Assembly (NCBI GenBank): GCA_016787985.1
Contig: JAEUTC010000043.1
Span: 17,145-81,144 of the forward strand
Direction of reading: 5' to 3'
DNA from: Flavobacteriales bacterium
GTDB lineage: Bacteria > Bacteroidota > Bacteroidia > Flavobacteriales_F > PHOS-HE28
Length of the DNA: 64,000 nt
In this document: in pieces, positions 12,201 through 26,128 of the stretch
How positions within the stretch are numbered: the first letter of the stretch is position 1
Layout: each line of letters opens with the position of its first letter
Translations under genes and position numbers: made by a program
Notes under the pieces: model-generated
Databases searched by the model: none
What the model was told of the DNA's origin: nothing
What the model saw: the letters and a program-made list of their open reading frames with translations, nothing else

Positions 12201-13954
12201 TAACCGATGTCAGCACCGGTTCCGCCGTAGTAGGTGCCCCATTGCCGCACTCCGGCGCTGTTGAATTTCACCAGGAAGGCATCATCGCTGCCCCCCAACG
12301 CGGCTTGGTGTGAACCCACTGTGGAAATGCCGGTCGCGCTCGAAGTGTAGCCCGCGAGGTACACGTTGCCGGCCGCGTCGGTAGCCACCGAAAGCCCGAA
12401 GTCGTTACCGGTTCCGCCGTAGTAGGTGGCCCATTGACGAACACCAGCGTTGTTGAACTTTGCCAAGAAGGCATTGCGTCCACCCGGCGCAGCAACGAGA
12501 TGCGAACCCGCTGTGGAGATCGAGCCAGTGCTGCGCGTAAGACCAGCCAGGTACACATTCCCGGCGGCGTCCGTGGCCACGGCCTGGCCCTCATCCAATA
12601 AGGTACCACCATAGTAGGTAGCCCAGTCAAGATCGGCGGCATAGGTTCCGATCTCGTTCAAATTCGTCACTGGCACTGCGCCTGGCACGGCTATGGGTAA
12701 CGTGGGAACGATGTAGGCAGCCGCATCGCCGGTGTTGCAGATGCTCACATCGTACGGCACAAGGTCATCACAGCCCACGCCCAGGTTGACGATGGTGGCG
12801 GACAAAAGCGCTTGCGGCGGACAGGTCACCGGATCGTTCACACGGTCCCTGCGCGGGCTCACATTGTTGAAGGTGGCCCACTCGTCCGGAGTGAAAGTCT
12901 CGTTTGGTGGCAAGTAGCCTATCGGTGGTGCGTGCCCAGCTATGGCACCGTTGAAGTTGACGATCGCGTATAGTGCAGTTGTGGAAGCCAGCACGCTGCC
13001 CGATAGGTTTCCGCTGATGCTGGCACCTGCCGGTAGTGATACCGTGCCGAGGTGCTGGGTGGTGAGGAAGGCGCTGGTGCTCAACGCGGGATCACCGTTG
13101 TAGAACGAGATCATCAACGGGCCATTGAAGTCCGTAGTCGCGTTGTTCGTCACCGTGTAGCTCGCTTGAAAAGCCGGCGTTCCGGAGATGCAACCCGATG
13201 CGGTGAAGCTGTCGAAGACGATGCTGAGGTCATAGCTCGGGTCAACTCCCACGCTGCATCCCGCGTTGATCATGGCCTGCACCAGCTGCACGTTGGCCTG
13301 CACCAGCTGCGCGTAGGTGGGCGCGCTGAAGTACGCTCCAGGGCTGGCCACTTGACCACCCATGAGCGAGGTGCAGTACGAAGCCGCTTCGATGGCCACC
13401 ACCACGATGGTGACGCCCGCGTTCTTGATCTGCGTCGCCAGCGTGGTCAATCCAGCAGGAACCTGGGAACAATCAGCATCGGTCATCAATACGATGATGG
13501 GCTTGGCGGTGCGCCCAGCGATAGGCGCCTGGCCTATCTGCTGAAAAGCCCTTGTGAGCGCTGTGACCGGATCGGTACCGCCGAGCAGGGCGCGCTGTGC
13601 GTTCTGGTAGGCCAGCACATCGCTCATCTCCGTAGTGTAGCTCGCACCCACAGAGGGGAAGCTGAACTGCTGCCACACGTTGGGGCTATCCCAATCGGCG
13701 ATGGCCATGCGGCTTTCTCCGGCGCCCGTGCCCCAAGGCTGCATGCCCATGAACAAAGCGCTGATGAACTGCCGGCTCTGGGTGTTCTCAAGAGCGCTCA
13801 CCGAGCCGCTCTGGTCGTTGGCCACGAACACATCAAGCGCACAAAGCTGCGCATGGGCCATATTCGTTCGGAGGAGGACAAGGGCGAACAGTACAGCGGC
13901 GGATCTCCACCGCAAGGATCCGTTGGTCGTGGTGGTGGATCCGATCAGTGGCAT
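9281..13954 (-). CDS. giant (1557 aa) secreted adhesin-like protein: N-terminal vWA domain, ~9 SBBP repeats, beta-sandwich domains, T9SS C-terminal sorting domain
   Basis: Signal peptide. vWA with MIDAS DQSGS and IIVLMTDADCS. Repeated ...AAGNVYLAG.T.S..GI.T.G..Q......D.FL.KFN.AGVRQW.TYYGG... (SBBP). C-terminal ...GVYVAILRRESRSETLRFVIP is a T9SS CTD. Confidence 0.8.
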   Translation of the reverse strand: MPLIGSTTTTNGSLRWRSAAVLFALVLLRTNMAHAQLCALDVFVANDQSGSVSALENTQSRQFISALFMGMQPWGTGAGESRMAIADWDSPNVWQQFSFPSVGASYTTEMSDVLAYQNAQRALLGGTDPVTALTRAFQQIGQAPIAGRTAKPIIVLMTDADCSQVPAGLTTLATQIKNAGVTIVVVAIEAASYCTSLMGGQVASPGAYFSAPTYAQLVQANVQLVQAMINAGCSVGVDPSYDLSIVFDSFTASGCISGTPAFQASYTVTNNATTDFNGPLMISFYNGDPALSTSAFLTTQHLGTVSLPAGASISGNLSGSVLASTTALYAIVNFNGAIAGHAPPIGYLPPNETFTPDEWATFNNVSPRRDRVNDPVTCPPQALLSATIVNLGVGCDDLVPYDVSICNTGDAAAYIVPTLPIAVPGAVPVTNLNEIGTYAADLDWATYYGGTLLDEGQAVATDAAGNVYLAGLTRSTGSISTAGSHLVAAPGGRNAFLAKFNNAGVRQWATYYGGTGNDFGLSVATDAAGNVYLAGYTSSATGISTVGSHQAALGGSDDAFLVKFNSAGVRQWGTYYGGTGADIGYSVTTDAVGNVYLVGTTESGAGIATVGAHQVANGGLGDNFLVKFNSAGVRQWATYYGGSDTEDLANVACDPAGNVHLVGQTLSTTGIATAGAFQSINNSDDVYLVRFNGAGVRQWATYFGGTGVETFPSVACDPSGNIFLNGTTNSTDVIDINAPYQPFSNGGDDGFLAKFDATGSPVWSTYVSGEDDEVMNDVAMDAVGRVTVAGFTKSVSGISTFGSFKESIDGTNRDAFAMKFSNDGVLLWGTYFGGEDDDENYAVAVDPAGDVYVVGLTASLVDLATTGAHQTVNNDNDDAYLAKFGEHELPRILYPGECFVRQYIYDYSALGAGTYNLSMGLAASVFTPGDPAPLIMPDQHFNAGTFVDISGFNGAVHTSDNAVIPAAGSPCATGDRISVSVNIPTVGSCGNGNYAQATITITNTSGTTITGADLDMNLVGLGATYVGEPYNLSAGLDLAAPNLLDPAYPFVPHAINGHSGSVLLPILSLPPGVSTFQVDLNIGSTLTNLFVQVTDIHTGINASGLSNTASDANGVTALTVPVIANFTCPGAINAGGNITLGGISVTGAATVQWASTTVGSITGGGTVSSPTLTYVPTPLDVANGFVAISLTALSVSGCDATVSCQIDIANVQYDYGDAPVVYDMNINYQPPAAASTLLNGLVLGLSGPSAESIAHNSVMADGDGNEEDALLTNPYTAPWPGIGGAFDLQIRATNNTANASFVHAFVDWNADGDFLDSLESSSNTVVKAPFTGLGSHLMHFTVPPFANPFGLFYIRLRLSVDSMAVTFPYMAAPLGETEDYVWESVGILPVELLSFTGTDEVSAVRLDWTTATEHNTSHFELERGSDGIAYITIGSLPAAGFSAAVIDYSLTDPVPLNGLSYYRLAQVDLDGTVAYHGPVAIEHRAAAQVWAQPIPGDGVVLHGSGWEEVHVHDHNGRLVASGPLTDGQWHFSGGVSGVYVAILRRESRSETLRFVIP

Positions 13955-16080: not shown

Positions 16081-16827
16081 TCAGTGGAAGAACTGCATCA
16101 CCTTGCTCCAGAGCTTCCGGGTCACCAGCAACGGCGGGGCTTGTAGGCCGTTCAATCCCCAAGAGGCGCGCACTTCACGGTTGGCCTTCAGGATGTGTTT
16201 CACGCTACCGTTGCTCATGCCACCCAACCGGAAACGCACCAGCACCTCGCGCAAGTGGACCGTGCGGATCTCGTGTTTGTAGAGCATACGCAGGAGGATC
16301 TCGTAGTCCGCAGCGATACGCAGGTCGGTGTTGAAATGCCCGAAGCGGTCGTATGCGCTTTTCCGGATGAAAGTGCCCACATGCGGTGGCATCCAACCAC
16401 GGCGGAAGTTGTCGCGGTGGTAGGTCCCACTGAGCCACGTCCGGTGCACTTTGTGGATGTCATGCTCGTCCACCATGATGATGTCCCCGTAAACGGCATC
16501 GGCATGGCTCCGCTGGAACGCATCCACCACCTGGGCGATCACCTGGGGGGTCATCAGCAGGTCACCGGCGTTCACGAAACCGATCACCTCGCCGGTGGCC
16601 GCGCGCAGCCCCTTGTTCATGGCATCGTAGATCCCCTTGTCCGGCTCGCTCACATAGTGCGCCAGCCGGTCTCGGTGGCGCTCCACCACCTGTTGGGTGC
16701 CGTCGGTGCTGGCCCCGTCGATCACGATCACCTCGATGTCGGTGTGCGTTTGCGCGAACACGCTTTCCAACGAAGCGCCGATAACAGCGGCCGCGTTACG
16801 ACATACGGTGATGAGGGTGACTTTCAT
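16081..16827 (-). CDS. glycosyltransferase family 2 (WcaE-like)
   Basis: MKVTLITVCRNAA...VIVIDGASTDGT...DKGIYDAMNKG... is the GT2 DxD architecture. Confidence 0.85.
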   Translation of the reverse strand: MKVTLITVCRNAAAVIGASLESVFAQTHTDIEVIVIDGASTDGTQQVVERHRDRLAHYVSEPDKGIYDAMNKGLRAATGEVIGFVNAGDLLMTPQVIAQVVDAFQRSHADAVYGDIIMVDEHDIHKVHRTWLSGTYHRDNFRRGWMPPHVGTFIRKSAYDRFGHFNTDLRIAADYEILLRMLYKHEIRTVHLREVLVRFRLGGMSNGSVKHILKANREVRASWGLNGLQAPPLLVTRKLWSKVMQFFH

Positions 16828-16944
16828 GGATGCTTATCCAGCTCCTACCGTGCGAAGATGAGAAGTCTGCCGAGAAGCCTGAATGCGAACCTCCCACCCC
16901 AACCCGCGAACCAAGACCAACCTGGTGCTGTTCTGGACTACGCC

Positions 16945-17571
16945 ATGGAAAAGCTTCGGATCCTCCAATGTATTCTCTTGCTAGCGGTAACTTCCTCCTC
17001 GGCTCAAGACGTTGAGCATCCATTCCGTATGGGCAGCAACGTCGAGATCTCCGCCGCGCAGCTCCTGATCGCGGGAAGTAACCAATACGCGGACAACATC
17101 CTCGACCGCCAACGCGGCGACGCCACCTTTATCGGTGCCAGCTACCTGCTCGGCGACACCACCGACCAGGGCCGTGGCATCGGGCGTTTCGCCGTAGGGA
17201 TCGGCGCAGGAGCACTGCTATGGGAAGGTATCACCCTGATGCCTGTATTTGGTCAGGTCAACTGGCACCCCTTCGTCCGCCGAGCCCCATGGGCCAGCGT
17301 GCACCTCAGCCGCTTGGGCATCGCCATGCGCTTCGGCGGCATCCTCGGCGCGTGGAAACCCACCACCCGTGGCCAACTCGCCGGGCACACGTACACCGAC
17401 CTGGCCTTCAAGTACCCCGCCCACCTCGGTCGCTTCAACCTGAGCCTCGATGCAGGCCTCGGAATGATCCTTCTACGCGGTCCCTACACCATCGCTGAAG
17501 AAGGCTTGGTGGAGGACAGACGCTTCGCCGAGTTCATCTACCCACGGTTGGGTCTGAGCGTGGGTTTCTGA
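16945..17571 (+). CDS. putative outer-membrane beta-barrel protein
   Basis: Signal peptide MEKLRILQCILLLAVTSSSAQ, alternating amphipathic strands, C-terminal ...LGLSVGF with terminal Phe. The 5' part of the track ORF is antisense to GT2 and was discarded. Confidence 0.5.
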   Translation: MEKLRILQCILLLAVTSSSAQDVEHPFRMGSNVEISAAQLLIAGSNQYADNILDRQRGDATFIGASYLLGDTTDQGRGIGRFAVGIGAGALLWEGITLMPVFGQVNWHPFVRRAPWASVHLSRLGIAMRFGGILGAWKPTTRGQLAGHTYTDLAFKYPAHLGRFNLSLDAGLGMILLRGPYTIAEEGLVEDRRFAEFIYPRLGLSVGF

Positions 17572-17593
17572 GTCGATCACGTTGACCACCCGG

Positions 17594-17932
17594 TCAACGC
17601 GCACTGCGGGCCCTGGCGTTGTAGGACAGGCAAATGCGCATGTAATACTGAAAGTCGTGATCGCGCTGGAGACCTTCAGCGTGGATGTAGCAATAGCCCT
17701 TGTAGGTCTTGCCCTTCATCAGCATGGTGGCGTAGCCCGCGCGCTCAGCCAGCACTTCCTGCAAATCCGGGTCGAAGCGCAGCATCAGGCTATCACCGCG
17801 AACGCATACACAGGTCTTCCCATTGACCATGAAATTGAGCACCCCGAACATCACCTTTTCTTCTACGGAGATGCCAAGGGTGGCGGCCAGGTGCTCACGC
17901 ACCCGGTCCGCCAGCGCTACATCGTACGGCAT
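17594..17932 (-). CDS. TfoX/Sxy N-terminal domain protein
   Basis: MPYDVALADRVREHL...GVLNFMVNGKTCVCVRGDSLMLR... matches the TfoX_N domain. Start at internal ATG (rc at 17930-17932). The upstream part of the track ORF looks non-coding. Confidence 0.7.
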   Translation of the reverse strand: MPYDVALADRVREHLAATLGISVEEKVMFGVLNFMVNGKTCVCVRGDSLMLRFDPDLQEVLAERAGYATMLMKGKTYKGYCYIHAEGLQRDHDFQYYMRICLSYNARARSAR

Positions 17933-17936
17933 CGTT

Positions 17937-18311
17937 TCACCGGCGGGAATGGAGTCCCACGGTGTTCCCTTCCGTATCCTTGAAGATGGAGACGAAGCCG
18001 AACTCGCCGATGGCCATCTTCGGCCGCAGCACTTCGCCTCCTGCACGTACGATGCGCGCCTCCTCGGCCTCACAATCCGCTGTTTCGAAATACACCACCG
18101 TGGCGTTGGATCCGTGTCGCAGTTCAGATGTCTCCACCAAAGCCCCCGAGATGTTCCCACTAGTGGGGTCGAAGGGGAACAAGGCCTGCCTGCCCCATTG
18201 TGCGGGCATGTCCGTGAGTTCGATCTGGAATACGGTTGCATAGAACGCTTTGGCGCGCTCCAGGTCGGCGACGGGGATGTCGAACCAACCTACAGGGTTC
18301 TGGTTTTTCAT
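17937..18311 (-). CDS. VOC family protein (glyoxalase-like)
   Basis: MKNQNPVGWFDIPVADLERAKAFYATVF...VVYF...KDTEGNTVGLH, a VOC fold. 4-nt gap to the downstream TfoX gene. Confidence 0.7.
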   Translation of the reverse strand: MKNQNPVGWFDIPVADLERAKAFYATVFQIELTDMPAQWGRQALFPFDPTSGNISGALVETSELRHGSNATVVYFETADCEAEEARIVRAGGEVLRPKMAIGEFGFVSIFKDTEGNTVGLHSRR

Positions 18312-18440
18312 GTGATGGATCTTCGGTATCGCACCTTGGGTGCCGGGTGCAAAAGTGGATCCACACGGATCGGCGGAATTGTAAAAATGGGACAGTGATC
18401 GGCTGTGATCGATGCGCCTGTTCACGCGCACGGATCAGGC

Positions 18441-19295
18441 TCAAGGCCGATGCACCACGGTGTGCTGGGACATGCGGGCATACTCCATTCCATCGAAGAT
18501 CAACGACATCCGCAAGGCATCGCCGCGAGAGCCCCCCGGGGTCAGGCCCGTGAACGCCTTGAAATCCTTGATGAAGTGTGCCTGGTCGAAAAAGGAGCTC
18601 TCGTAAGCGAGGCCCGTCAGGTCGTTCACCTCATCGAAGAGCATGCGGCGCAGGGCGGACTGGATGCGTACGGTACGCGAATACTGTTTCGGCGATAGGC
18701 CGATGAGCGTGGAGAACTTACGGGCCAGGTGGCGGCGATGCACATGGCTGCGCCGTGACAGTTCATCCACGGTGAGGCTCCCGTTCGTCGTGCGGATGTC
18801 CAAGAGAGTGCGCGCGATCACCGCATCAGCCTGTGGCCGCGTGGCCAAGCGATGGAACAAGAAGCCCTCCACCAGGTCGATCCGTTCTGCGGTGGTGCAC
18901 GCATCCAGGACCCGGCGCCCGATCACATCCCCCTCGAAACCGAACAACCCCTGCAGGGGCACCGCCGTGTTCTCGAACGCCTTCAACGGACCGCCCCAGA
19001 ACGGCTGGAAACCGCCGGGGTGGAAGCGCACCACGAACGACCCCGTGCGCCCCAGCGGACGCACCACGAACGGCTTCGTCAATTGACCGATCAGGAAGCA
19101 GCGCGGCAGATCCACCCACACGCCGGGCCGGGGCTGGTGCAGGTAGGGATCGCCGTAGTGGAAGATCAGCTTCATGGTGCCATCGGGCACGATGGTGTTC
19201 ATCACCGGCGTGTCGTGCGGTTCGCCCACGAGGTTCCAATGGCACATCACGTGCGCATCCAACCCGCGGGAAACTGGGAAGATCTCTGAACGCAT
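18441..19295 (-). CDS. AraC family transcriptional regulator
   Basis: C-terminal dual HTH: ...LTVDELSRRSHVHRRHLARKFSTLIGLSPKQYSRTVRIQSALRRM... Confidence 0.8.
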   Translation of the reverse strand: MRSEIFPVSRGLDAHVMCHWNLVGEPHDTPVMNTIVPDGTMKLIFHYGDPYLHQPRPGVWVDLPRCFLIGQLTKPFVVRPLGRTGSFVVRFHPGGFQPFWGGPLKAFENTAVPLQGLFGFEGDVIGRRVLDACTTAERIDLVEGFLFHRLATRPQADAVIARTLLDIRTTNGSLTVDELSRRSHVHRRHLARKFSTLIGLSPKQYSRTVRIQSALRRMLFDEVNDLTGLAYESSFFDQAHFIKDFKAFTGLTPGGSRGDALRMSLIFDGMEYARMSQHTVVHRP

Positions 19296-19468
19296 GATAC
19301 TCCGTTGGGACCTCCGGTATTCAGGGGGCTAACTATCCGCCACACCGACTTCGGGCAACGCCACGGCAAAACTACATGCCAACGAAGGCTGGCCCTACAA
19401 GCGATGATGCCATGAAGTCCAGCGGCACGAACCAGCTGAGCGACCAAAGGCTGACACAGCGATCCCAA

Positions 19469-20101
19469 CTAGAAGTTGAATCCCACATGCAAACCCGGTT
19501 CGCCGAGGATGAACTTGGACCACTTGTCGTCCAGCTGCTTGAAGCCATCCGGTAACCGTGTGTGGTAGGCCCGGTGCGTGATGGCGATGGACGGTTGGAA
19601 GAAGAAACGGTCCTTGAAGAGCTTGATGTGATAGCCGGCCCGGTAGGTGTTGAAGACCTGGAACCCGCCATCGATCTTGTTCCCTTGGTCGTTCACGAAG
19701 TCCTGCAAGGTGGGCATCACGTTCAGCTCGGCATAGAGGCCCTTCCAAAAGAAGCGTTGATAGGAAAGCGAAAGGCCATACTCGCGCACATACCCTGGGA
19801 ATTTCTCTTCCGGCTTTTCGTAGGCATTGTTGAGGAACGGATGTATACCATTGGGCCAGGCATACTTCCAGGTCTTGGGTTCCACGGTGATCACATCCCG
19901 ACCCGTGAGGCGATAGCCGATGTTGAGTTGAAAGAAATCCGGTGGATTGTCGGTGGGCGCCAGGTTACCCACCAGCACGAAAAGGCTGGTTCCCACGAAC
20001 CAGCGCTTGTAGGTGCTGTCCGTTCTCGAGTATTGTGCTTGGAGGTTGAACGAGCTGGTCATCACCAGCGCAAGAATCACGAGTCCGATGTTCTTCTTCA
20101 T
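19469..20101 (-). CDS. outer-membrane protein, paralog A of a duplicated family (DUF, ends GFNF)
   Basis: Signal peptide MKKNIGLVILALVMTSSFNLQAQ. Shares ...YKRWFVG.SL..LGNL......P.F.QLN.GYRLT..DVI..E.K...YAWP.GI... and a C-terminal ...GLHVGFNF with the next gene. Confidence 0.6.
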   Translation of the reverse strand: MKKNIGLVILALVMTSSFNLQAQYSRTDSTYKRWFVGTSLFVLVGNLAPTDNPPDFFQLNIGYRLTGRDVITVEPKTWKYAWPNGIHPFLNNAYEKPEEKFPGYVREYGLSLSYQRFFWKGLYAELNVMPTLQDFVNDQGNKIDGGFQVFNTYRAGYHIKLFKDRFFFQPSIAITHRAYHTRLPDGFKQLDDKWSKFILGEPGLHVGFNF

Positions 20102-20161
20102 CACTTCTTCTGTTGTTTTCAACGACGGCGCAAAACAAGACCGGCGATGGGCCTCCACTCG

Positions 20162-20175
20162 TTCACTTTGGTGAA
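20162..20175. promoter_or_regulatory. inverted repeat TTCAC-TTTG-GTGAA ~61 nt upstream of OMP paralog A; candidate Crp/Fnr-family operator
   Basis: Perfect 5-bp arms. The same flanking context (CGTTCACTT..GTGAAGGAATGC) recurs upstream of paralog B. Confidence 0.4.
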
Positions 20176-20317
20176 GGAATGCGCCACACGAACGCCTTTT
20201 TCCGGATGCTCCCGAGCCATGCAGGCATCGCCAGCACGCTCGTGCTACGCAGGACCGCATGGAAAATGAACCGACCCGTTGGTCGAGGATGACAGCCTGT
20301 CTGCCGCCCCTGGTCCT

Positions 20318-20935
20318 CTAGAAATTGAACCCGAAGTGAAGGCCTGGCTGGATGAAGTAGTTGGGCCATCTACTTTCCACGGCCTTGAACACTTCAGGAA
20401 CCTTCGTCCGTACCGGCCAATAGCTACAGCCCATGGCTGGCTCGAAGAAGAACCGGTTCTCCCAGAACCTGAACTGATAACCCAGGTGGAAGTTCAGGTA
20501 CAAGGTGTACCCATTGCCGATCTTCTTTTTGTCCTGATCCATGTATTTCTCGAAGGCGTTCAAGGCATAGATGGAAGTATAGACCCCTTTCCACCAGAAG
20601 CGCTGGTAGCCCACGGTTGGCGCCAGTATGCGCGCATGGCCGGGGTAGTTCAGGCCGGGTGCATCGAATGAGGGACCGAATGGAATACCGATCGGCCACG
20701 CGTAGATGGATCGTTTGAACTCGATCGAGATCACATCCTTCGGGGTTAGCCGATAGCCCACGTTCAACTGGACGTACTCAGGTTTGTTGACCCGATCCAG
20801 ATTCCCGAGCAAGTACAGTGAACTCCCAACGTACCACCGCCGATAGGTGCTGTCCTGCAGGGCAGTTGCAGCGCGGAGTTGGAGCGTGCTGGCCATCAAG
20901 ATCACAAAACCAATGAGAGTGCTTTTCTTCTGCAT
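20318..20935 (-). CDS. outer-membrane protein, paralog B of the duplicated family
   Basis: Signal peptide MQKKSTLIGFVILMASTLQLRA. Collinear similarity to paralog A. C-terminal ...GLHFGFNF. Confidence 0.6.
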   Translation of the reverse strand: MQKKSTLIGFVILMASTLQLRAATALQDSTYRRWYVGSSLYLLGNLDRVNKPEYVQLNVGYRLTPKDVISIEFKRSIYAWPIGIPFGPSFDAPGLNYPGHARILAPTVGYQRFWWKGVYTSIYALNAFEKYMDQDKKKIGNGYTLYLNFHLGYQFRFWENRFFFEPAMGCSYWPVRTKVPEVFKAVESRWPNYFIQPGLHFGFNF

Positions 20936-20992
20936 GCTACCCTACGTGTTGATCGAGGCCGCAAAAGAAGACCGGCGGGTCGCCCCACCGCG

Positions 20993-21006
20993 TTCACTTA
21001 AGTGAA
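20993..21006. promoter_or_regulatory. perfect 14-bp palindrome TTCACTTAAGTGAA ~58 nt upstream of OMP paralog B; candidate Crp/Fnr-family operator
   Basis: Perfect palindrome between the Crp/Fnr gene 3' end and the paralog B start. Confidence 0.4.
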
Positions 21007-21013
21007 GGAATGC

Positions 21014-21595
21014 TCAGCCCCTCTCCTTCTCGATGATCCGTGCCCTGAGCCGGCTCAACGATTGGGGGGTGATGCCCAGGAAGCTCGCCAGCTGGTGCTG
21101 TGGCACACGCTGAACGAGGTCCGGACGTGTGCGCAATAGGTTCAAGTACCGCTGTTCGGGTGATGAGGTCTTGAACGCATCGAACTCCACGCGCTCCTTC
21201 GCCAGTAGCTCTTCGGAAAGCACCTTACACAGCGTCTCGAAGCGCGGGAAACGGCTATTCATGTCCACCTCCAGGTCCGCGTCCGAAACGGTCAGGATGG
21301 TGTCTTCCACACAACTGATGGAATACTCGGAGGGCGTTCGGCTCACCACGCACGGTGGTGTCAAGGCCTCCAGCTCGCTATAGAAGGAGGTGGTCCGCTC
21401 CTCGCCATCCACGATGTAGTAGGTGCGGATGCAGCCTTCCAATACGAAGTAGCTGTTCCGCGATCGTTCTCCGGCGTTGAGCAGTATGGTCCCTTTCTTC
21501 ACCGTTCGGAAGATGTCCAAGGAACCGACCACGCTCTTCTCCTCCTCCGTCAAGGTCATGTACTTGGCGATGAAGGCGAAGAGTTTGTTCTGCAT
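21014..21595 (-). CDS. Crp/Fnr family transcriptional regulator
   Basis: cNMP-binding-like N-domain (...GTILLNAGERSRNSYFVLEGCIRTYY...) and C-terminal HTH (...LQRVPQHQLASFLGITPQSLSRLR...). Confidence 0.85.
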   Translation of the reverse strand: MQNKLFAFIAKYMTLTEEEKSVVGSLDIFRTVKKGTILLNAGERSRNSYFVLEGCIRTYYIVDGEERTTSFYSELEALTPPCVVSRTPSEYSISCVEDTILTVSDADLEVDMNSRFPRFETLCKVLSEELLAKERVEFDAFKTSSPEQRYLNLLRTRPDLVQRVPQHQLASFLGITPQSLSRLRARIIEKERG

Positions 21596-21769
21596 GGATC
21601 ACCGGTCCAGTCTTCGACGGTCATGCGCTACACCCCGCTGATCTTCTTGCGCCACAACCGAACAGACAGCAAAGGTACCGACTCAACACGAGGCGTGCTA
21701 AACGTGGGCTACGGACCTAAGGACCGCAAATCCTGGAACACCTGGCCCCAGGAGAAGGCCGGCACCCGA

Positions 21770-23149
21770 TCACTCCTTCAACTTCACACGCACCTTCTCG
21801 CCATCAGCAGTGATCCGGACCAACGCGTAGTTGCTCACGTTCGCGGGAGAGCCCCAATGCCTCACATCCATCGTCGGCGTAGCGGTGCCCGAACCATCGG
21901 GGTACACGGTAACCGTGTAGCCCCCTGTGGGGGTTTGGGTGGTGTGGGTGTACTTGGTCGCCACGAATTGCACGATCACATGGTATTCACCGGGCTTCAG
22001 GTGCTGGAACGAGAAGCCTCCCCGGTCATCGGTGACCTCGGTGAGCAGGGTCTGTTCCTTCACTTCCAACGGCAGCGGGAAACCTGCGCAGCCGTTGAGC
22101 ACCTGGCCAGCCACGATGGTCGGGGGGAATTTGGTGCGGACGGCGGTGTTGAAGGCCAGCCACTCCTTGAAGTACGGCGTTTGGGGAATGAGCATCACGA
22201 TGCTGCCCTTGGGCGCAAGGATCCTCTTGGGCCGATCCAGCAAGGCCCCGGGCATGCCTTCGTCCGTGGTGTACGCCTGGCCTTCGATGCTGGAATTGCC
22301 CGCGCTGATCATCGCCCGGGCCGCGGCCGCATCGAACGGGGTCACGATGGGGTTGCGGTCGGCTTGCGTATCCATGTAGGTCACGCCGAAGGAGCCGGGG
22401 TCCTTGCTCACGAACAGGATCCTCCGCGACTCCTTCTCGATCACGATCTTGTACGTGTTCGTCGCGGTCAACGTATTACGGAGTTCCACCACGAAGACGT
22501 CCACCACCTCGCCGATGGCACACGACGGCATCTTCATCTCCTGCAAGCTCTCGATCTCCCAGCGCATCACCTTCGTGCGGTAGCCGTCATCGAAGGTCAC
22601 CTGCGGGATCAGGGCCCGGTAGCCCGCCTTCAGGGGCAATAGGCTGACCAGGAACTCCAACGAACTCCCCAGGAAGAACGGCTCTTCGAGGGGTTCATCG
22701 AAATGCTCCTTCTCCCCTGTCCTGTACACCTCGATATCGCCCTTCAATGTCTTGCCGCAGACCAGGTCGTACGAGAAGCCCACCGTCTCGGCCTGCGCAC
22801 GGATGGGCCCGAAGGTGCGGGCGTCCAACACGAGTTTCCGTTTCACCACATCCGCACCCTGCTCCGTATACCGCTCTTCGATCACGATCTCGCCCGCCGT
22901 GCGGCTGATGGTCACGAACCGTTGATCCGGCTTCTGGGGTTCTCCGGAAGCGAATAGACCGCCGGTCGGTCGTTCCCACACGAAACTGCCGGTGTGCAAC
23001 AGCGCCGTGTTGAGGCTGGCACTACCGGGCAGCACGATATCGGGCTTTTGCGCCACCACACGGGTGGGAGCCATGAGCAGTACCGCCATTGCGGTCGAGA
23101 GGGCGAAGGAGACGCGGAACACCATTCCAGCTGATAGCATGTTGATCAT
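21770..23149 (-). CDS. hypothetical secreted protein with C-terminal carboxypeptidase-regulatory-like domain
   Basis: Signal peptide. C-terminal ...DDRGGFSFQHLKPGEYHV... resembles a CarbopepD_reg-like beta-sandwich. Confidence 0.5.
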   Translation of the reverse strand: MINMLSAGMVFRVSFALSTAMAVLLMAPTRVVAQKPDIVLPGSASLNTALLHTGSFVWERPTGGLFASGEPQKPDQRFVTISRTAGEIVIEERYTEQGADVVKRKLVLDARTFGPIRAQAETVGFSYDLVCGKTLKGDIEVYRTGEKEHFDEPLEEPFFLGSSLEFLVSLLPLKAGYRALIPQVTFDDGYRTKVMRWEIESLQEMKMPSCAIGEVVDVFVVELRNTLTATNTYKIVIEKESRRILFVSKDPGSFGVTYMDTQADRNPIVTPFDAAAARAMISAGNSSIEGQAYTTDEGMPGALLDRPKRILAPKGSIVMLIPQTPYFKEWLAFNTAVRTKFPPTIVAGQVLNGCAGFPLPLEVKEQTLLTEVTDDRGGFSFQHLKPGEYHVIVQFVATKYTHTTQTPTGGYTVTVYPDGSGTATPTMDVRHWGSPANVSNYALVRITADGEKVRVKLKE

Positions 23150-23548
23150 CGTTCATCGATCCAACGGCACACCACCACGGATAAAGGCGGAAACGCCCCT
23201 AAAAGAACCGTGATACGCGTGGGATCATCGCGGCAAGCGGGAGAAGCGCATCAAGACCGGGAGAGGTCGATCCTTCTTCACCTGAACACCTTTGCCGAGC
23301 GGTGCCAAAAGTATGCCAGTGATCCTATCGCCTTTGGGGAACAGGGCTTCCGCGTTGAACCGCCGGTCACAAAGCCGGGACGCGTTCGGCATAGCATGCC
23401 CCGCCGTTGGCGCACAGTACCTGAGTTGAGCGAAGCTGTTCAGCGCCACTCGAAAAGCGTGACAGGATGTTCGAAGAAACCTACTAACCAAAGAAAGACT
23501 GCTCAGACCTTGAAGCTGTTCTAGGACGTGTCACTCGGGCAATCCTAC

Positions 23549-23938
23549 TCATTCTAATCGTGACTTCCATGCACAAGCCCTAGCCCCCGATCTTAAAACG
23601 CGCATTGGCGATGAGCCGTAGATGAGCAGCGGCACCAATACGACTATGCTTAGGATGGTACATTTAGCCAGCTTTTCGCCTGTGCTGTAGGTGGCGCCTT
23701 TGGTCCACAGTAGAACTACGGATGCCAGCCAGAACACCCCGGCACTGCCGCCGGCAGCGAGCAGGTGACCCAAGCCATCCAGGTAGTCATGTGCCAGGGC
23801 TAGTGAAAGACCGAAAGCAAGGAGCGTTCCGCCGAGAAAGGAAGCCACAATGCCCACGAGCACCCCATTGCTCATGGTGGACCGGTGGAGCCACCGGAGA
23901 CAAAGAACCAGCACGGCAACGTTCAGGAGAACGGACAT
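23549..23938 (-). CDS. small integral membrane protein, hypothetical
   Basis: 3-4 predicted TM helices. No homology recognised. Confidence 0.4.
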   Translation of the reverse strand: MSVLLNVAVLVLCLRWLHRSTMSNGVLVGIVASFLGGTLLAFGLSLALAHDYLDGLGHLLAAGGSAGVFWLASVVLLWTKGATYSTGEKLAKCTILSIVVLVPLLIYGSSPMRVLRSGARACAWKSRLE

Positions 23939-24023
23939 CCGCGTTGTTCAAGGTTGGTTCAGCAAGCTCTTCGTAGCCGCTTCGATGAAGCGGGTCTAGT
24001 TCGTTCGCAGCCGTGGTTCGCGG

Positions 24024-24218
24024 TCAGCCCTCCGTCTTCTCCTCCTTCTTCCCCCGCAGGATCAAGAACAGCGAGAGCCCAAAGCCGAACATATAGACCA
24101 AGGCGAGGGGCAGGTGCCGGAAGCGGAGGGTCTCGAAGTCGAACTCCCTGAAGAGGGAGATGCCGATGATGAGGGTGATGACCTGCATCGGGAAGGACGC
24201 GGCGAGGAGCTTCTTCAT
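24024..24218 (-). CDS. small (64 aa) two-TM membrane protein, hypothetical
   Basis: MKKLL start and two hydrophobic helices. Immediately downstream of direct-repeat copy 1. Confidence 0.35.
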   Translation of the reverse strand: MKKLLAASFPMQVITLIIGISLFREFDFETLRFRHLPLALVYMFGFGLSLFLILRGKKEEKTEG

Positions 24219-24242
24219 GGTGGTGAGACTTAAGCGGTGGGG

Positions 24243-24282
24243 TCCATCACCCGTTCGCGCACGGGCTGGGCGAGGTTGTCTT
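24243..24282. repeat. direct repeat copy 1 (~40 bp) matching the 3' end of the WcaF-like CDS
   Basis: tccatcacccgTtcgcgcacgggctgggcgAggttgTctt. The counterpart at 24820-24859 has 3 mismatches. Confidence 0.6.
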
Positions 24283-24758
24283 CAATTATCGTCGGTACAA
24301 CTTCGGCACCGCTTCATGCTGATGATCTCTCCGTTCCTGAACTCAGCCCTGAAGCCGATGCTTCTCTTCCAAAGCAGTCGTTCGTATGTCTTCGCCGCTA
24401 CAAGAACGAAGTCGTATTTGGTGGTGTCAAGTGGAAAATCAATGACTTGGAACTCCACAATGCCAACAGACCCTTTCAAAAATGCCCAACGCTCATAAGC
24501 CCTGGTGCTTTGCGCGATGAATTCGTCAAACTGAGGAATGTAGCGCGCATAGTCCTGCACGAATGCATTTAAACGGTCAAGTTGTGCCTGGTCAACGTTC
24601 TTCTTCGGCGCCCTGAAATAGACGTCACAAGAGATCGTTTGATGAGGGAATGGCCAAGTGAAATGATAGTTCTCCCTACCAGACCAACTTCGAACGAATG
24701 AGAGGTCATTCCTAACCTGCTCAAGGTTCATAAGTGGAGGTGAGAATTGCTCCATCAC
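24282..24758 (-). CDS. hypothetical protein (158 aa) carried on a low-GC inserted cassette
   Basis: The ORF fills the lower-GC segment between the two direct repeats. No recognisable domain. Confidence 0.5.
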   Translation of the reverse strand: MMEQFSPPLMNLEQVRNDLSFVRSWSGRENYHFTWPFPHQTISCDVYFRAPKKNVDQAQLDRLNAFVQDYARYIPQFDEFIAQSTRAYERWAFLKGSVGIVEFQVIDFPLDTTKYDFVLVAAKTYERLLWKRSIGFRAEFRNGEIISMKRCRSCTDDN

Positions 24759-24815
24759 AGTTCGCTAGATGGGACTAAAGTCTGGTTACCTAGTTGGAGG
24801 GTCAATACTCGTTGG

Positions 24816-25391
24816 TCATTCCATCACCCGCTCGCGCACGGGCTGGGCGGGGTTGCCTTGGTAGATGGTGTAGGGCTCCAGGTCCTTGGTGGCCACGCTT
24901 CCGGCGGCCAACACACTGTGGCTCTTGAGGGTGACGCCCAGGGTGACGATGGCCCCCGCTCCCACCCAGCTGCCATCTTCCAACACCACCGGCTTGGTGT
25001 AGGTGGGGTAATCCACCTTCTTGTAATCGTGGCTACCCTGGATGATCATGGCGCCCTGGCTGATCACCACGTTGTTGCCGATGGTGAGGGTATCGAGGTT
25101 ATCCAACCAGGCACGCTGACCGATCCAGCTGTGGTGGCCGATGCTGAGCTTCCACGGGAACTTGATGTTCACGCTGGGGTGGATGACCACACCTTGCCCC
25201 ACGTGCGCGCCGAACAGCCGCAGCAGACCGGGTTTCGGCGAGCGGAACGGGAAGGCCGGGTTCTGGAAGATGAGGGCGTTGACGAAGAACCACAAGGTGC
25301 GTTTGAACACACCGGCGCCGGGGTGGAAGGTCTTCGAGTTATCGAAGCGGCTGAGGTCTACCTGGGGGCGTGCGGTCATGGTTTTGGCCAT
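24816..25391 (-). CDS. wcaF: WcaF-like hexapeptide-repeat acetyltransferase (colanic acid/EPS acetyltransferase family)
   Basis: ...RLFGAHVGQGVVIHPSVNIKFPWKLSIGHHSWIGQRAWLDNLDTLTIGNNVVISQGAMI... left-handed beta-helix hexapeptide repeats typical of WcaF. Confidence 0.8.
   Translation of the reverse strand: MAKTMTARPQVDLSRFDNSKTFHPGAGVFKRTLWFFVNALIFQNPAFPFRSPKPGLLRLFGAHVGQGVVIHPSVNIKFPWKLSIGHHSWIGQRAWLDNLDTLTIGNNVVISQGAMIIQGSHDYKKVDYPTYTKPVVLEDGSWVGAGAIVTLGVTLKSHSVLAAGSVATKDLEPYTIYQGNPAQPVRERVME
24820..24859. repeat. direct repeat copy 2, the last ~13 codons of the WcaF-like gene
   Basis: tccatcacccgCtcgcgcacgggctgggcgGggttgCctt, encoding ...NPAQPVRERVME-stop on the minus strand. Confidence 0.6.
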
Positions 25392-25639
25392 CCTTCCAAG
25401 AGTATCACATTCACATCACCATCCAAGACCCTGAAGTCCTTATCGGCCGTTAGCAGTGGCACATCCTTGCGCAACGCCGTTGCTGCGATGATGGCGTCAA
25501 CGACCGCCATGTTGTGCTTCCTTCGAATGCCGATGGCCAGGTCTGGCAACCCTGGTCCATATTCAAGGGAACTAGTGCCGACCACGACGCATAGCTTTCT
25601 GTTGTACCACGGGATCACCTTCAAAAGGGATCGTCCCAA
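25376..25639 (-). pseudogene. PIN-domain (VapC-like) toxin gene remnant, C-terminal half only
   Basis: ...NMAVVDAIIAATALRKDVPLLTADKDFRVLDGDVNVILLEGW matches a VapC C-terminus. The N-terminal PIN half is absent in this frame. A 57-aa ORF in another frame starts MIVL.. upstream. Confidence 0.4.
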
Positions 25640-26128
25640 CGAAGCGCGAGACGCTGGCCCCCTTGCGCTGTTTCCGGGCCAACCGCTTCAATGCAGCGGT
25701 AAGTTGGCCCTTCAGCAGTTCTCCTTCGCGCAGTACTATCATGATCGTGATCGGTAGTCTTCAAAGATACCGGTTCCTTGACATCCAAGCCAGCAAGGAG
25801 GGCCTCACCGCGTTGCGTCGGATGCGCGGTATCACACAAGGACTGGACCTGCGCCTTGCCACAACAGGCTGCGGAACTGTGTGTCGGGATCTGCAACACA
25901 CTGTTGTTAGCCACTACCAGAAGAAAGAGCGCGAAGCGCCAGGCAAAGCTCGCCATGCGAGCGATTCCTCTGCGTTCTCTGCGCCTCTGCGTGAGGAAGC
26001 GAGGGACGCTCTCAAGCCCAACCCATCCATGCCCAAGAACTTGCATCGCTTTTGCCGGTCGAAAGGCACTGCGCGGCCCTCTCACACTTCCTTTGCCGCA
26101 AAGCGCGCACGTTATCGCCAACGAACAG

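Follow-up and report, generated by a model that had tools for sequence, protein, structure and literature searches.

The DNA considered here, hereafter the window, is a stretch of 64 kb from a Flavobacteriales bacterium (GCA_016787985.1, contig JAEUTC010000043.1, positions 17,145-81,144), and it harbors a polysaccharide O-acetyltransferase gene, wcaF, in whose last codons a small, single-gene insert is found. The features of this locus are collected in Table 1.

Table 1. Features at the 3' end of wcaF, in the order of transcription (positions are those of the window).
Feature	Position	Strand	Description
wcaF, WcaF-family polysaccharide O-acetyltransferase	24816..25379	-	NCBIfam NF007797; hexapeptide repeats; start from five relatives
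Proximal repeat copy	24820..24859	-	last 12-13 wcaF codons (...GNPAQPVRERVM); 36-nt core identical to the empty sites of L011 and L095
Insert-supplied wcaF end, E-stop (GAATGA)	stop 24816-24818	-	directly after the proximal repeat
Insert leader, 64 nt	24756..24819	-	from the end of the proximal repeat to the cargo ATG; starts with ATGA, the new wcaF stop
Cargo gene ORF157	24282..24755 (157 aa, ATG) or 24282-24758 (158 aa, GTG)	-	the 157-aa call is used in public assemblies
ORF157 stop codon	24282-24284	-	abuts the distal repeat
Distal repeat copy	24243..24282	-	displaced native wcaF 3' end, now non-coding; old frame (N)LAQPVRERVM
Native tail of the old wcaF end and 11-nt spacer	24219..24242	-	D-P-T-A-stop, TAA at 24230-24232; matches the empty sites
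Small membrane protein gene, 64 aa	24024..24218	-	directly after wcaF in genomes without the insert

An initial, sequence-only reading of the window had described a low-GC, single-gene segment bracketed by direct repeats of the wcaF 3' end. The repeat is exactly as it was claimed to be: the two copies are identical at 37 of 40 positions at a spacing of 577, and the similarity between them breaks off abruptly at either edge. The extent of the repeat has to be qualified, however, as the certain duplication encompasses 36 nt (CAACC...GATGGA) rather than 40; the outer four bases (AAGG versus AAGA) match at three positions and may represent microhomology at the joint. A 28-nt core of the repeat occurs twice in the window, as this pair and nowhere else, and matches of this kind arose by chance in none of 100 shuffles. 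Between the copies lie 537-541 bp (about 0.54 kb) with ORF157 as the single gene, in the same orientation as wcaF, and the low GC that had been noted is borne out. GC is 0.479 in the insert against 0.624 in wcaF and 0.595 in the small membrane protein gene, with GC3 values of 0.56, 0.88 and 0.97, respectively, and in 200-nt windows it runs at 0.465-0.485 within the insert and at around 0.60-0.65 outside it. The same repeat and insert structure is present in independent assemblies, and the insert is therefore not an assembly artefact.

At the left junction (GATGGA/ATGA) there is no TTRRRY motif, and at the right junction (TGAAGA/CAACC) the cargo stop codon meets the gene-end segment, with AAG as 3 nt of microhomology. 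The insert ends carry no terminal inverted repeats, the only inverted repeat between positions 23000 and 26500 being located inside wcaF, and no transposase is found among the ORFs of the insert or of the window; these two findings rule against an insertion sequence or transposon. Neither strand of either repeat copy folds better than its shuffles (z 0.08, 0.07, 0.00 and -0.14). A search for a cognate recombinase, which had been proposed as a check, found none among the ORFs scanned in the 64-kb window: the tyrosine-recombinase box II motif is absent from all window ORFs of at least 150 aa, a recombinase Pfam domain is absent from the ten mid-size window ORFs scanned, 20 kb of Pfam-annotated neighbours hold no recombinase, and no recombinase signature occurs in the 537-bp insert, whose sole ORF is of 157 aa.

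The target gene is a clear member of its family, as wcaF matches NF007797 over residues 10-190 with an E value of 2e-63 and 213.3 bits (cut-off 192). Its start, taken from five relatives, is likely at 25379 (ATGACC, overlapping the stop codon of the upstream gene) and not at 25391 as called by the ORF finder. That the insert is a true insertion is borne out by a precise empty site in five related assemblies, comprising the close relatives L011, L093, L094 and L095 together with the more distant L030. In these, wcaF ends in ...RERVMD(P/T/A)TA-stop some 10 nt ahead of the small membrane protein gene, which thus directly follows wcaF in genomes without the insert, just as had been surmised. The tail is DPTA-stop in L093 and L094, DATA-stop in L095 and DTTA-stop in L011, and the 36-nt core is either identical to that of the window or one base off. 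On the strength of the empty sites, the distal copy, with its DPTA-stop tail and spacer, is the old end of wcaF, displaced by the insert and still joined to the small membrane protein gene. The tail and spacer alleles of the window resemble those of L093.

The proximal copy, in turn, runs wcaF into a new end supplied by the insert, ...VME-stop, in keeping with the earlier proposal that the insert regenerates the gene end. Many relatives, L049 among them, have this new end with its ATGA (ATGAAGGTC in L002) as their natural wcaF/GT2 junction. The genome of L002 is itself related to that of the window and carries an insert at the same site with identical boundaries, its distal tail and spacer resembling those of L095. 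Beyond the first 9 nt, a likeness of the L002 leader to the GT2 gene is unconvincing by eye. Within wcaF, no site is common to both cassette-bearing genomes as against all of the empty-site genomes; a donor tract is not visible, and the crossover must fall within the repeat or at its edge. A second copy of the gene's own 3' end within 6 kb downstream was found at none of 80 related wcaF loci.

By its sequence, ORF157 is a real gene: in comparison with its homologue at the same site in L002 (79%), dN/dS is 0.31, with a dS of 0.35 and a dN of 0.11. The dS values of the flanking genes in the same comparison are similar (0.24 and 0.41), and a single old insertion followed by loss or allele exchange would fit equally well as repeated integration. 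The leader is weakly alignable between the window and L002 (P = 0.02). ORF157 is probably expressed by read-through from the promoter of the wcaF operon; a scan for terminators and for promoters of the sigma-70 type, as distinct from the Bacteroidota type, gives no match between wcaF and the small membrane protein gene.

ORF157 belongs to a small, unannotated family of the Flavobacteriales, with 26 representative homologues at E values up to 0.001. Other members come from low-GC Flavobacteriales, namely Flavivirga, Chryseobacterium, Flavobacterium and Fluviicola, and this distribution, along with the atypical GC and GC3, marks the gene as foreign in origin. Its fold is confidently predicted (AlphaFold model with pLDDT 92.5), with no match among the PDB and BFVD structures searched: Foldseek returned nothing at E<=0.001 (best 0.14 and 0.014, respectively), with query-normalised TM-scores of <=0.35. 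Pfam gives no family-level match, as 13 families were each matched by one of 28 members at E values of about 0.008 or weaker, while NCBIfam and PHROGs give none; PADLOC returned one line at the level of chance (E 0.03), and a profile search against PDB sequences gave nothing better than E 0.019, likewise at chance level. Similarity to a known immunity-protein family, the candidate kind of cargo named in the initial reading, was absent from Pfam, NCBIfam, PHROG, PADLOC, PDB and BFVD, and no toxin gene is adjacent to a family member in any context seen. Two family members have no tblastn match among plasmid records, and family-based scans of JGI metagenome and IMG/VR contigs yielded no relatives.

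Four distant members of the family are integron cassettes flanked by attC sites: P0030 in L092, P0029 in L105, P0021 in L106 and P0004 in L109, the host of the last being Flavivirga rizhaonensis. The L105 and L106 attC sites, taken as positive controls, have folding z values of -2.9 and -2.2 and complementary GTTRRRY/RYYYAAC cores. The two long attC sites of L092 do not fold significantly (z -0.8 and +0.3) and are recognised by their repeats and cores; Rfam found nothing on three related loci, including these L092 sites, which are known from other evidence. No attC site follows ORF157 in the window, where the stop codon runs straight into the wcaF-derived repeat, and the wcaF-end repeats contain no R''/R' inverse cores. 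The repeat is thus rejected as an attC site for want of both excess folding and cores. Likewise rejected is a G/TT insertion (attI, attC or attG) without target duplication, as 36-40 nt of the target are duplicated. An integron-integrase route, whether by attC x attG or by R'' cleavage, predicts a retained attC and no duplication and is rejected on that account; the only likeness is a weak one, in that the ...ACAAC of the right junction resembles, over 5 nt only, the R'' core CACAAC of three of the four attC sites of the family.

The sequence-only reading had also suggested a search for other cargo ORFs between the same repeats; the architecture recurs with copies of other gene ends. The closest ORF157 homologue outside the wcaF site, P0003 (51%), is found behind recG (RecG E 5e-26), with a copy of the last 19 recG codons on either side; the two copies are 82% identical over 50 nt at a spacing of 566. 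These copies have 14 nucleotide differences, mostly silent, and retain 15 of 19 residues and the stop codon; under random decay the probability of this pattern is 6e-5, 0.002 or 0.13 if the relic took all 14, 11 or 7 of the changes, respectively. The pair is about 25% diverged and its longest identical run is of about 17 nt. At both the wcaF and recG sites the joint lies within 0-3 nt of the cargo stop codon. The leaders of the two sites are not alignable and reveal no conserved element end. At the 5' end of wcaF, L022 and L023 carry different toxin-antitoxin cassettes of 0.76-0.79 kb (DUF6364 with PIN_3, and an antitoxin with PIN) between duplications of the first wcaF codons of 50 and 53 nt. 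The differences between the L023 copies are mostly silent (P = 0.013); the two differences in L022 are non-synonymous changes in the relic and look like decay. The window and L002 copies, with 2-3 differences, are compatible with random decay after exact duplication. As the differences in the recG and L023 pairs are mostly silent, in at least these two other cases the gene-end allele seems to have come in with the cassette, as it would in a Campbell insert. No convincing core sequence is common to the wcaF 3', wcaF 5' and recG repeats, and a decayed wcaF 5' relic upstream of a toxin-antitoxin module in L002 is not significant (P = 0.94). Scanning about 1 Mb of related loci for self-similarity produced 34 candidates; those examined beyond the cases given here are paralogues, internal protein repeats, attC arrays or REP elements.

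The explanation that we prefer, and to which we give about an even chance, is a Campbell-type, single-crossover integration of a small circle that bore the cassette together with a gene-end copy. In this view the cassette, acquired horizontally, promoterless, of around 541 bp and made up of the 64-nt leader and a single gene, ORF157, would have entered the last codons of wcaF as part of a small circular DNA also carrying a short copy of the wcaF 3' end. A single crossover between the circle and the chromosomal wcaF end would then leave the segment duplicated on both sides of the cassette, and the joint between cargo stop and gene-end segment, with its AAG microhomology, would be the one at which the circle had been closed. 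Later recombination between the copies could remove the cassette precisely, restoring the empty site and releasing the same circle, and such loop-out would account for why the cassette is found in some closely related genomes and not in others. For the crossover itself, the host's own homologous or short-homology recombination would seem somewhat likelier than a dedicated integrase supplied in trans. In E. coli, single crossovers of circles that contain part of a target duplicate the homologous segment (PMC3240628). The att-type integration originally proposed is upheld in its topology, which fits best, but not in its machinery, as neither a recombinase nor an att-like structure nor repeat folding was found.

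Several observations weigh against the Campbell-type explanation. The searches gave no circular form, donor locus or recombinase, and 36 nt is short for RecA-dependent recombination. The near-identity of the window copies means that the wcaF case alone also fits a duplication made at insertion. A circle closed at random does not explain joints lying so close to the cargo stops, and the unalignable leaders at wcaF and recG are a further difficulty, as are the lack of a visible donor tract in wcaF and the dS values, with which a single old insertion accords as well as repeated integration does.

Among the alternatives, site-specific integration of a non-autonomous cassette by a tyrosine or serine recombinase in trans, possibly an integron integrase, with the gene end as attachment site, is rather unlikely, although its topology would be identical to that of the Campbell-type event. 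Integrases that rebuild a gene end typically have repeats of 36-57 nt, and the run of identity in the recG pair, too short for RecA, is adequate for a recombinase core; the 5' boundary in wcaF has been used by two different toxin-antitoxin cassettes, and in the circle the gene-end segment would occupy the position, between stop codon and leader, that attC holds in the true cassettes of the family. The repeats, however, lack the excess folding of the L105 and L106 attC sites as well as their inverse cores, and share no convincing core among the three targets, and no recombinase was seen among the window ORFs scanned or in the 20 kb of Pfam-annotated neighbours. A transposition-like or break-repair insertion that makes a long (36-57 bp) target-site duplication, which later decays, is very improbable. 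The almost perfect window and L002 copies accord with it, as do the L002 distal copy, which agrees with the empty sites at 36 of 36 positions so that the original duplication may have been exact, the non-synonymous relic changes in L022, and joints that have short microhomology only. Against it, the recG and L023 copies keep frame and stop and differ at silent positions as alleles do, in line with the initial view that this is not a transposase target-site duplication, and the repeat edge coincides with the end of gene homology (the recG stop codon, or the point at which two types of wcaF locus diverge), quite apart from the missing inverted repeats and transposase. No prokaryotic transposon family is known to create duplications of 36-57 bp.

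That the cassette is the remnant of a larger prophage or ICE at the wcaF 3' end, reduced to one gene, had been offered as one possibility, and the 3' ends of genes are indeed frequent targets of integrases, which bring a replacement end with them, as with e14 and icd. This is nevertheless extremely improbable: homologous cargo sits behind recG in the same geometry and in a unit of near-equal total size (566 versus 577 bp), the toxin-antitoxin cassettes are likewise small, the L002 boundaries are identical to those of the window, and no large occupant is seen in the 6 kb downstream of the 80 related wcaF loci. The chance that the distal copy is instead a degenerate paralogous acetyltransferase fragment, or a fortuitous similarity, is negligible. 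Some related MAGs do carry two wcaF loci, but the window holds only one, the shuffles gave no such match, and the reading is refuted by the empty sites, where distal copy, tail and spacer are collinear with a single wcaF end in all five assemblies. Thus neither arrangement that had been set against an insertion, host-like GC without an empty site or a paralogue fragment, is what is found. Finally, a linear donor of wcaF, leader and ORF157 could have been taken up by homology-facilitated illegitimate recombination, its far end joined at AAG, 36 nt upstream of the end of homology, though we regard this as quite improbable. It would suit the 2-3 nt of microhomology beside the stop codon and a new wcaF end that resembles the natural wcaF/GT2 junction of another locus type, and the same mechanism has been put forward to explain orphan immunity genes and displaced 3' ends at T6SS and Rhs loci (PMC5361080). 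In E. coli, however, one-ended illegitimate recombination generally gives deletions of recipient DNA rather than duplications (PMC3240628), whereas four independent cases here all have duplications of 36-57 nt; moreover, no donor-derived tract is visible in wcaF, and the recG copies are too different for an efficient homologous anchor.

Outside integrons there is little documentation of how very small accessory genes get into packed operons when they have no transposase or integrase themselves, and the wcaF insert represents a clean natural example with both occupied and empty alleles. The pattern that marks it, two copies of a gene end enclosing a cassette, is met again in three further settings, including homologous cargo behind the unrelated recG, and the wcaF and recG arrangement points to a little-described way for very small cassettes to enter operons. 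As other members of the cargo family are attC cassettes, this gene-end route is linked to the integron cassette pool. A bolder proposal, distinctly unlikely on present evidence, is that of a new class of minimal mobile cassettes in the Flavobacteriales, in which a gene-end copy (36-57 nt) would serve as the recombination site instead of attC and a recombinase in trans may catalyse the reaction. Such cassettes would be promoterless, with a cargo of one gene or two (ORFans or toxin-antitoxin pairs) taken from the integron cassette pool, and would enter and leave at operon junctions (wcaF 5' and 3', recG 3') with the interrupted gene always restored. If a defined mechanism lies behind the recurring pattern, this would be a second, attC-independent route of cassette spread, and further cases could be searched for by a simple signature, 0.5-0.8 kb of foreign DNA between two copies of a gene end. 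If it reflects only the occasional Campbell recombination of circularised fragments, the locus is a tidy but modest example of the diversification of polysaccharide loci.

Cassettes are documented outside integrons, and SALINs, defined by an attC site that accompanies a CDS, are isolated cassettes at genomic attG sites (Loot et al., bioRxiv 10.1101/2022.09.11.507474). Like these and integron cassettes, the wcaF insert is small, promoterless, of a single ORF and of foreign composition, and lies in the orientation of host transcription; the attC-flanked context of the four cargo relatives is a further likeness, although one that concerns the relatives and not the window copy. Unlike them, the insert has no attC, its stop codon abuts the duplicated gene end and the repeat does not fold; it also duplicates the target segment, which integrase-mediated insertion does not do. 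With integrase-bearing elements such as prophages, ICEs and IMEs it has in common attL/attR-type direct repeats that contain a gene end, along with an empty attB in relatives, but it holds no integrase or recombinase gene. The prophage e14 of E. coli K-12 has on one side icd, the 3' end of which reaches into the prophage, and on the other the displaced C-terminal pseudogene icdC; excision of e14 rejoins icd with the displaced end (PMC13626634). The wcaF insert similarly enters a gene 3' end and supplies a near-synonymous replacement, the native end being left on the far side as a C-terminal relic. However, e14 is of 15 kb, with prophage site-specific recombination systems invoked for its excision, whereas the wcaF insert measures 0.54 kb, has a single small gene and lacks a recombinase, and its homologous cargo is found at unrelated target genes.

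At Rhs, CDI and T6SS effector-immunity loci, too, newly arrived DNA with its anchor in a conserved gene pushes the resident 3' end downstream, where an orphan remnant is left, for which one-ended illegitimate recombination has been proposed (PMC5361080). What is displaced there is a variable toxin domain with its immunity gene, whereas wcaF just regains its end, with no exchange of polymorphic sequence, and the gene added is an unrelated small ORF. The nearest parallel to the Campbell-type explanation comes from E. coli conjugation assays, in which single-crossover events, at 56 of 60 clones, were far commoner than true one-ended illegitimate events (PMC3240628). Those laboratory duplications, obtained with an engineered plasmid, are of 109-950 bp as against 36-57 nt here, but in both situations the insert is flanked by a direct duplication of the homologous segment (PMC3240628).

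The minus strand is the coding strand for every gene in the stretch around wcaF (NF007797, E 2e-63, above the cut-off), and the 3' end of this gene is found there in two copies, as a 40-nt direct repeat. The proximal copy forms the last codons of the gene (...GNPAQPVRERVM), the similarity stops abruptly at both edges, and the 28-nt core of the repeat occurs in the window only in these two copies, with 0 of 100 shuffles giving a match. The 537 bp between the copies have a GC content of 0.479, as against 0.624 for wcaF and 0.588 for the whole window, and harbor a single ORF, the cargo, of 157 aa (ATG 24755) or 158 aa (GTG 24758), the stop codon of which is in contact with the distal copy. The GC3 is 0.56 in the cargo, 0.88 in wcaF, and 0.97 in the small membrane gene. 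The sequence-only reading, which had described a duplicated wcaF end bracketing a low-GC, one-ORF segment, is confirmed by the 37/40 repeat and by the GC of the insert. The first bases of the insert, ATGA, provide a new wcaF end, ...VME and stop, after the proximal copy, and the exact arrangement is also found in independent public assemblies. The start of wcaF is set at 25391 (MAKTMTARPQ) by the ORF finder and in public gene calls; judged by the relatives, the likely true start is ATGACC, at 25379, which overlaps the stop of the upstream gene.

Set against related loci, the window cassette is a real insertion with clear polarity. A WcaF scan of species-representative genomes gave 80 related loci, and in L011 (WcaF 95% identical) and the more distant L030 a homologue of the 64-aa membrane gene lies directly after wcaF. 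Three further empty sites (L093, L094, and L095) came from a DNA-pattern scan of JGI metagenomes, so that the earlier expectation of a membrane gene otherwise abutting wcaF is borne out in all of these assemblies. In these empty sites wcaF ends in ...RERVMD(P/T/A)TA and stop (MTSAN and stop in L030), and the ATG of the membrane gene follows 6-12 nt past this end. The distal copy in the window, with GAC CCC ACC GCT TAA and the spacer, corresponds to this native wcaF end, severed from its gene. The window proximal copy, the distal copy of L002 (a second genome with the cassette), and the L011 and L095 empty sites have an identical 36-nt core (CAACC...GATGGA); as this core is shared and the window has one wcaF, the distal copy is ruled out as a fragment of a paralogous acetyltransferase.

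The cargo of L002, P0002 (79% identity), is the only close homologue among 5.8 billion protein clusters, and it occupies the same site, with identical boundaries and a repeat that matches at 38/40. Between the two cargo genes dS is 0.35 and dN 0.11, and the ratio of 0.31 indicates a gene under purifying selection; the flanking genes are similarly diverged (wcaF dS 0.24, membrane gene dS 0.41). Since the L002 wcaF is nearer to those of the empty-site L095 (0.11) and L093 (0.14) than to that of the window, and since the distal tails match different empty-site alleles (L093 for the window, L095 for L002), occupancy is patchy among close lineages. This patchiness fits precise loss via the repeats, allele exchange through flanking homology, or repeated integration. 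No wcaF sites are common to both occupied genomes as against all empty ones, and upstream of the repeat no donor tract can be seen when wcaF of the window and L002 is compared with the empty-site genomes.

The cargo has no match among Pfam, NCBIfam, and PHROG models, and a single PADLOC line (E 0.03) is at chance level. An exhaustive HMMER search of 1.84 billion representatives gave 26 proteins at E up to 0.001, all of about 121-163 aa and the best 51% identical. Named hosts include Flavivirga rizhaonensis, Chryseobacterium lacus, Flavobacterium sp., and Fluviicola sp.; the genes of these named members have a GC of 0.27-0.29, which suggests that the window cargo was imported from low-GC Flavobacteriales and has in part adjusted to its host. 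A confident AlphaFold model (28-sequence alignment, pLDDT 92.5, pTM 0.86) predicts an N-terminal helix, three strands, a long and a short helix, and four long strands, for which Foldseek against PDB and BFVD gave nothing at E up to 0.001, with query-normalised TM-scores of at most 0.35.

The same architecture is found at recG. P0003 (51% identity), the closest cargo homologue after P0002 and assembled independently from two runs (L096, L097), is encoded 42 nt 3' of recG (RecG models E 5e-26, alignment at the C-terminal end), and the final 19 codons of recG recur in a second copy that overlaps its stop codon (50-nt repeat, 82% identity, spacing 566). The copies translate as KHHLIKEMKDRPNWARVS and KHHQKKGMKDRPEWARVS, each followed by a stop; of 57 nt, 14 differ, although both copies retain the stop codon and agree at 15 of 19 residues, with serine encoded by AGT in one and TCT in the other. 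Because random decay of a relic would give this pattern with P = 6e-5 (14 relic changes), 0.002 (11), or 0.13 (7), the two copies most likely diverged while serving as functional gene ends in separate lineages, and the recG-site cassette appears to come with an allele of its own for the target end. The second copy is followed by a hairpin and a convergent gene, as expected for a native recG end.

A self-similarity scan of about 1 Mb of fetched loci gave two further gene-end duplications (L022, L023), both at the wcaF 5' end. In each, the upstream copy is a relic that retains the ATGA overlap with the preceding gene, and 3 of 4 changed codons in the L023 copies are silent (P = 0.013). Other candidates examined in the scan were paralogues, internal protein repeats, attC arrays, or a REP/RAYT pair. 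As the toxin-antitoxin cassettes of L022 and L023 show the same duplicated-end architecture, a cassette between two gene-end copies is a recurring outcome in these genomes, not tied to one cargo. The L023-type module at the GT4/wcaF junction also occurs in the window, L002, and L095, is intact in the latter two, and is missing in L011, L093, and L094; in these three the GT4 stop codon runs into the wcaF start (CCATGACC). In L002, the only genome so checked, the module has left no significant wcaF 5' relic.

The wcaF junctions are a hot spot. In most relatives the GT2 gene start overlaps the wcaF stop (GAATGAAGGTC...), and in L030 the gene order is only wcaF-smp-GT2, smp being the small membrane gene. 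The new wcaF end equals this natural wcaF/GT2 junction (e.g. L049), with GGAATGA in the window and especially GGAATGAAGGTC in L002, which points to a wcaF-GT2-type locus as the origin of the gene end carried by the cassette; past the 9 junction nt, the leader has no convincing similarity to GT2. A string recurring at several of these loci, GGAATGAAGG(T/A)C, may be a coincidence or a shared recombination core.

Locations of the insertions and neighboring features (window positions unless a related locus is named)
Feature	Location	Strand	Description
Distal / proximal repeat copies	24243-24282 / 24820-24859		37 matches, spacing 577
Cargo	24282-24755	minus	inside insert
Leader	24756-24819		64 nt, proximal repeat to cargo ATG
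Small membrane gene	24024-24218	minus	64 aa
wcaF	24816-25379	minus	polysaccharide O-acetyltransferase
Degraded toxin-antitoxin module	25376-25742	minus	between second GT4 gene and wcaF; 55-aa antitoxin intact, truncated PIN toxin keeps residues 66-128 only
Further small insertion at GT4/wcaF junction	25743-26128		~390 bp, GT4 stop to antitoxin gene; no counterpart in L002, L095, L011
GT2 gene	16084-16827	minus	8 kb downstream of wcaF
Genes that look like material built up at wcaF/GT2 junction	16828-24023		DUF3108, cNMP-binding, two paralogous outer-membrane-like proteins, AraC, glyoxalase, TfoX_N, others
Tandem small outer-membrane-like proteins	19469-20935; L002:10512-11996	minus (window)	adjacent paralogues, 205-263 aa, signal peptides, both ending ...PGLHFGFNF; kept in relatives
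Direct repeat, presumably internal protein repeat	12022-12086 / 12406-12470		65 nt, 83% identity, spacing 384, in 1557-aa ORF 9281-13954
Toxin-antitoxin cassette	L022:5213-6056		GT4b-ATGA, relic of first 16 wcaF codons, DUF6364 + PIN_3 pair, functional wcaF; repeat 50 nt, 96% identity, spacing 794
Toxin-antitoxin cassette	L023:2210-3025		different small antitoxin + PIN pair between two copies of first 17 wcaF codons; repeat 53 nt, 91%, spacing 763
Probable REP/RAYT pair	L083:10404-11094		147-aa ORF with HYHIVF motif (IS200-like/RAYT transposases) between two 29-nt GC-rich hairpin repeats
GGAATGAAGG(T/A)C	L002:3699-3712; L096:646-660; L049:6562-6580		cassette left edge; recG repeat middle; one of many wcaF/GT2 junctions
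attC-flanked single-gene cassette arrays	L092:2300-8700; L109:4760-8100		Flavobacteriales-type DNA; L092 attC sites unusually long, ~240 nt
Integron-type cargo relatives	L092; L105; L106; L109 (F. rizhaonensis genome)		P0030; P0029; P0021; P0004

Four distant members of the cargo family are genuine integron-type cassettes. GTTRRRY-like cores precede each of their ORFs, and 3' of each is a complementary RYYYAAC core with an imperfect inverted repeat, at the stop or a short way past it (roughly 20 nt in L105 and L109); all four ORFs belong to arrays in which similar units recur about every 640-740 nt. Folding of the attC hairpins gave z scores of -2.9 in L105 and -2.2 in L106. As no integrase was called in the fetched flanks of L092 or L109, these look like attC clusters that lack an integrase (CALIN-like). 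The cargo relatives of L107 and L108 are flanked by a different repeat of about 110 nt, and those of L091 and L098 by no obvious repeats.

The window element itself was rejected as an attC cassette, in that neither strand of either copy outfolds shuffles, inverse cores are missing, and the target is duplicated. It was also rejected as a transposon, being without terminal inverted repeats and transposase, and as an autonomous integrative element, the integrase being absent from it. The tyrosine-recombinase-type motif H..RH[TS] is found in no window ORF of at least 150 aa, ten mid-size window ORFs have unrelated Pfam domains or none and no recombinase, and the Pfam-annotated 20 kb around the site contain no recombinase. 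The wcaF-site cassette has a leader that does not align with that of the recG-site cassette and, the ORF apart, these cassettes have no conserved element end. Of the att-type integration proposed earlier, the topology and the non-autonomous cassette hold, whereas the searches of the window gave no recombinase that would support a dedicated att/recombinase system; the alternative of a remnant of a larger element is judged unlikely.

A single crossover between a circle and the chromosome leaves as its signature an insert flanked by direct copies of a segment common to the incoming DNA and the target, and integrases that target gene ends yield the same topology. In E. coli conjugation assays aimed at one-ended illegitimate recombination, 56 of 60 clones were single crossovers, in which the circles carried part of the target and the duplications spanned 109-950 bp; deletions are the general outcome of one-ended illegitimate recombination (PMC3240628). 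The e14 prophage has icd, the 3' end of which runs into the prophage, on one side and a displaced icdC pseudogene on the other, and these two recombine when e14 is excised (PMC13626634). On account of this signature and these precedents we favor Campbell-type integration of a small circle, to which we give about an even chance. The circle would comprise the cargo, the leader, and a gene-end copy, and would first have been closed at a joint by the stop codon (between TGAAGA and CAACC in the window, and between TAA and AACAT at recG). A single crossover with the chromosomal gene end would then place the cassette between duplicated ends, and later recombination between the copies would regenerate both circle and empty site. 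Within Campbell-type integration, short-homology recombination by the host is somewhat more likely than a site-specific recombinase acting in trans, which as a separate explanation is rather unlikely.

Linear one-ended illegitimate recombination, proposed for displaced 3' ends at T6SS and Rhs loci (PMC5361080), would account for microhomology but leaves the duplication in every case unexplained, and we regard it as improbable. A long target-site duplication is compatible with the window taken alone but not with the allele-like copies at recG and L023, and we consider it very unlikely. The favored circle integration does not account for the joint lying 0-3 nt from the natural stop codon in both cases from the cargo family (wcaF and recG). 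The same position is the start of the attC R'' core in two of the four integron cassettes (L092, L106). The window joint reads ...ACAAC, and CACAAC is found in three of the four family attC sites; the match may go back to an ancestor that had an attC, or it may be chance.

The most fitting place for the window element, a single-gene cassette of 0.54 kb, is among Campbell-type, gene-end-restoring insertions. The family of its cargo is otherwise carried in attC arrays, and its architecture repeats at recG and, with toxin-antitoxin cargo, at the wcaF 5' end. Close analogues are integrative elements that restore the end of their target gene, such as e14 at icd, the displacement of 3' ends at toxin loci, and isolated integron cassettes at attG sites (bioRxiv 10.1101/2022.09.11.507474), from which the window element differs in having no attC.
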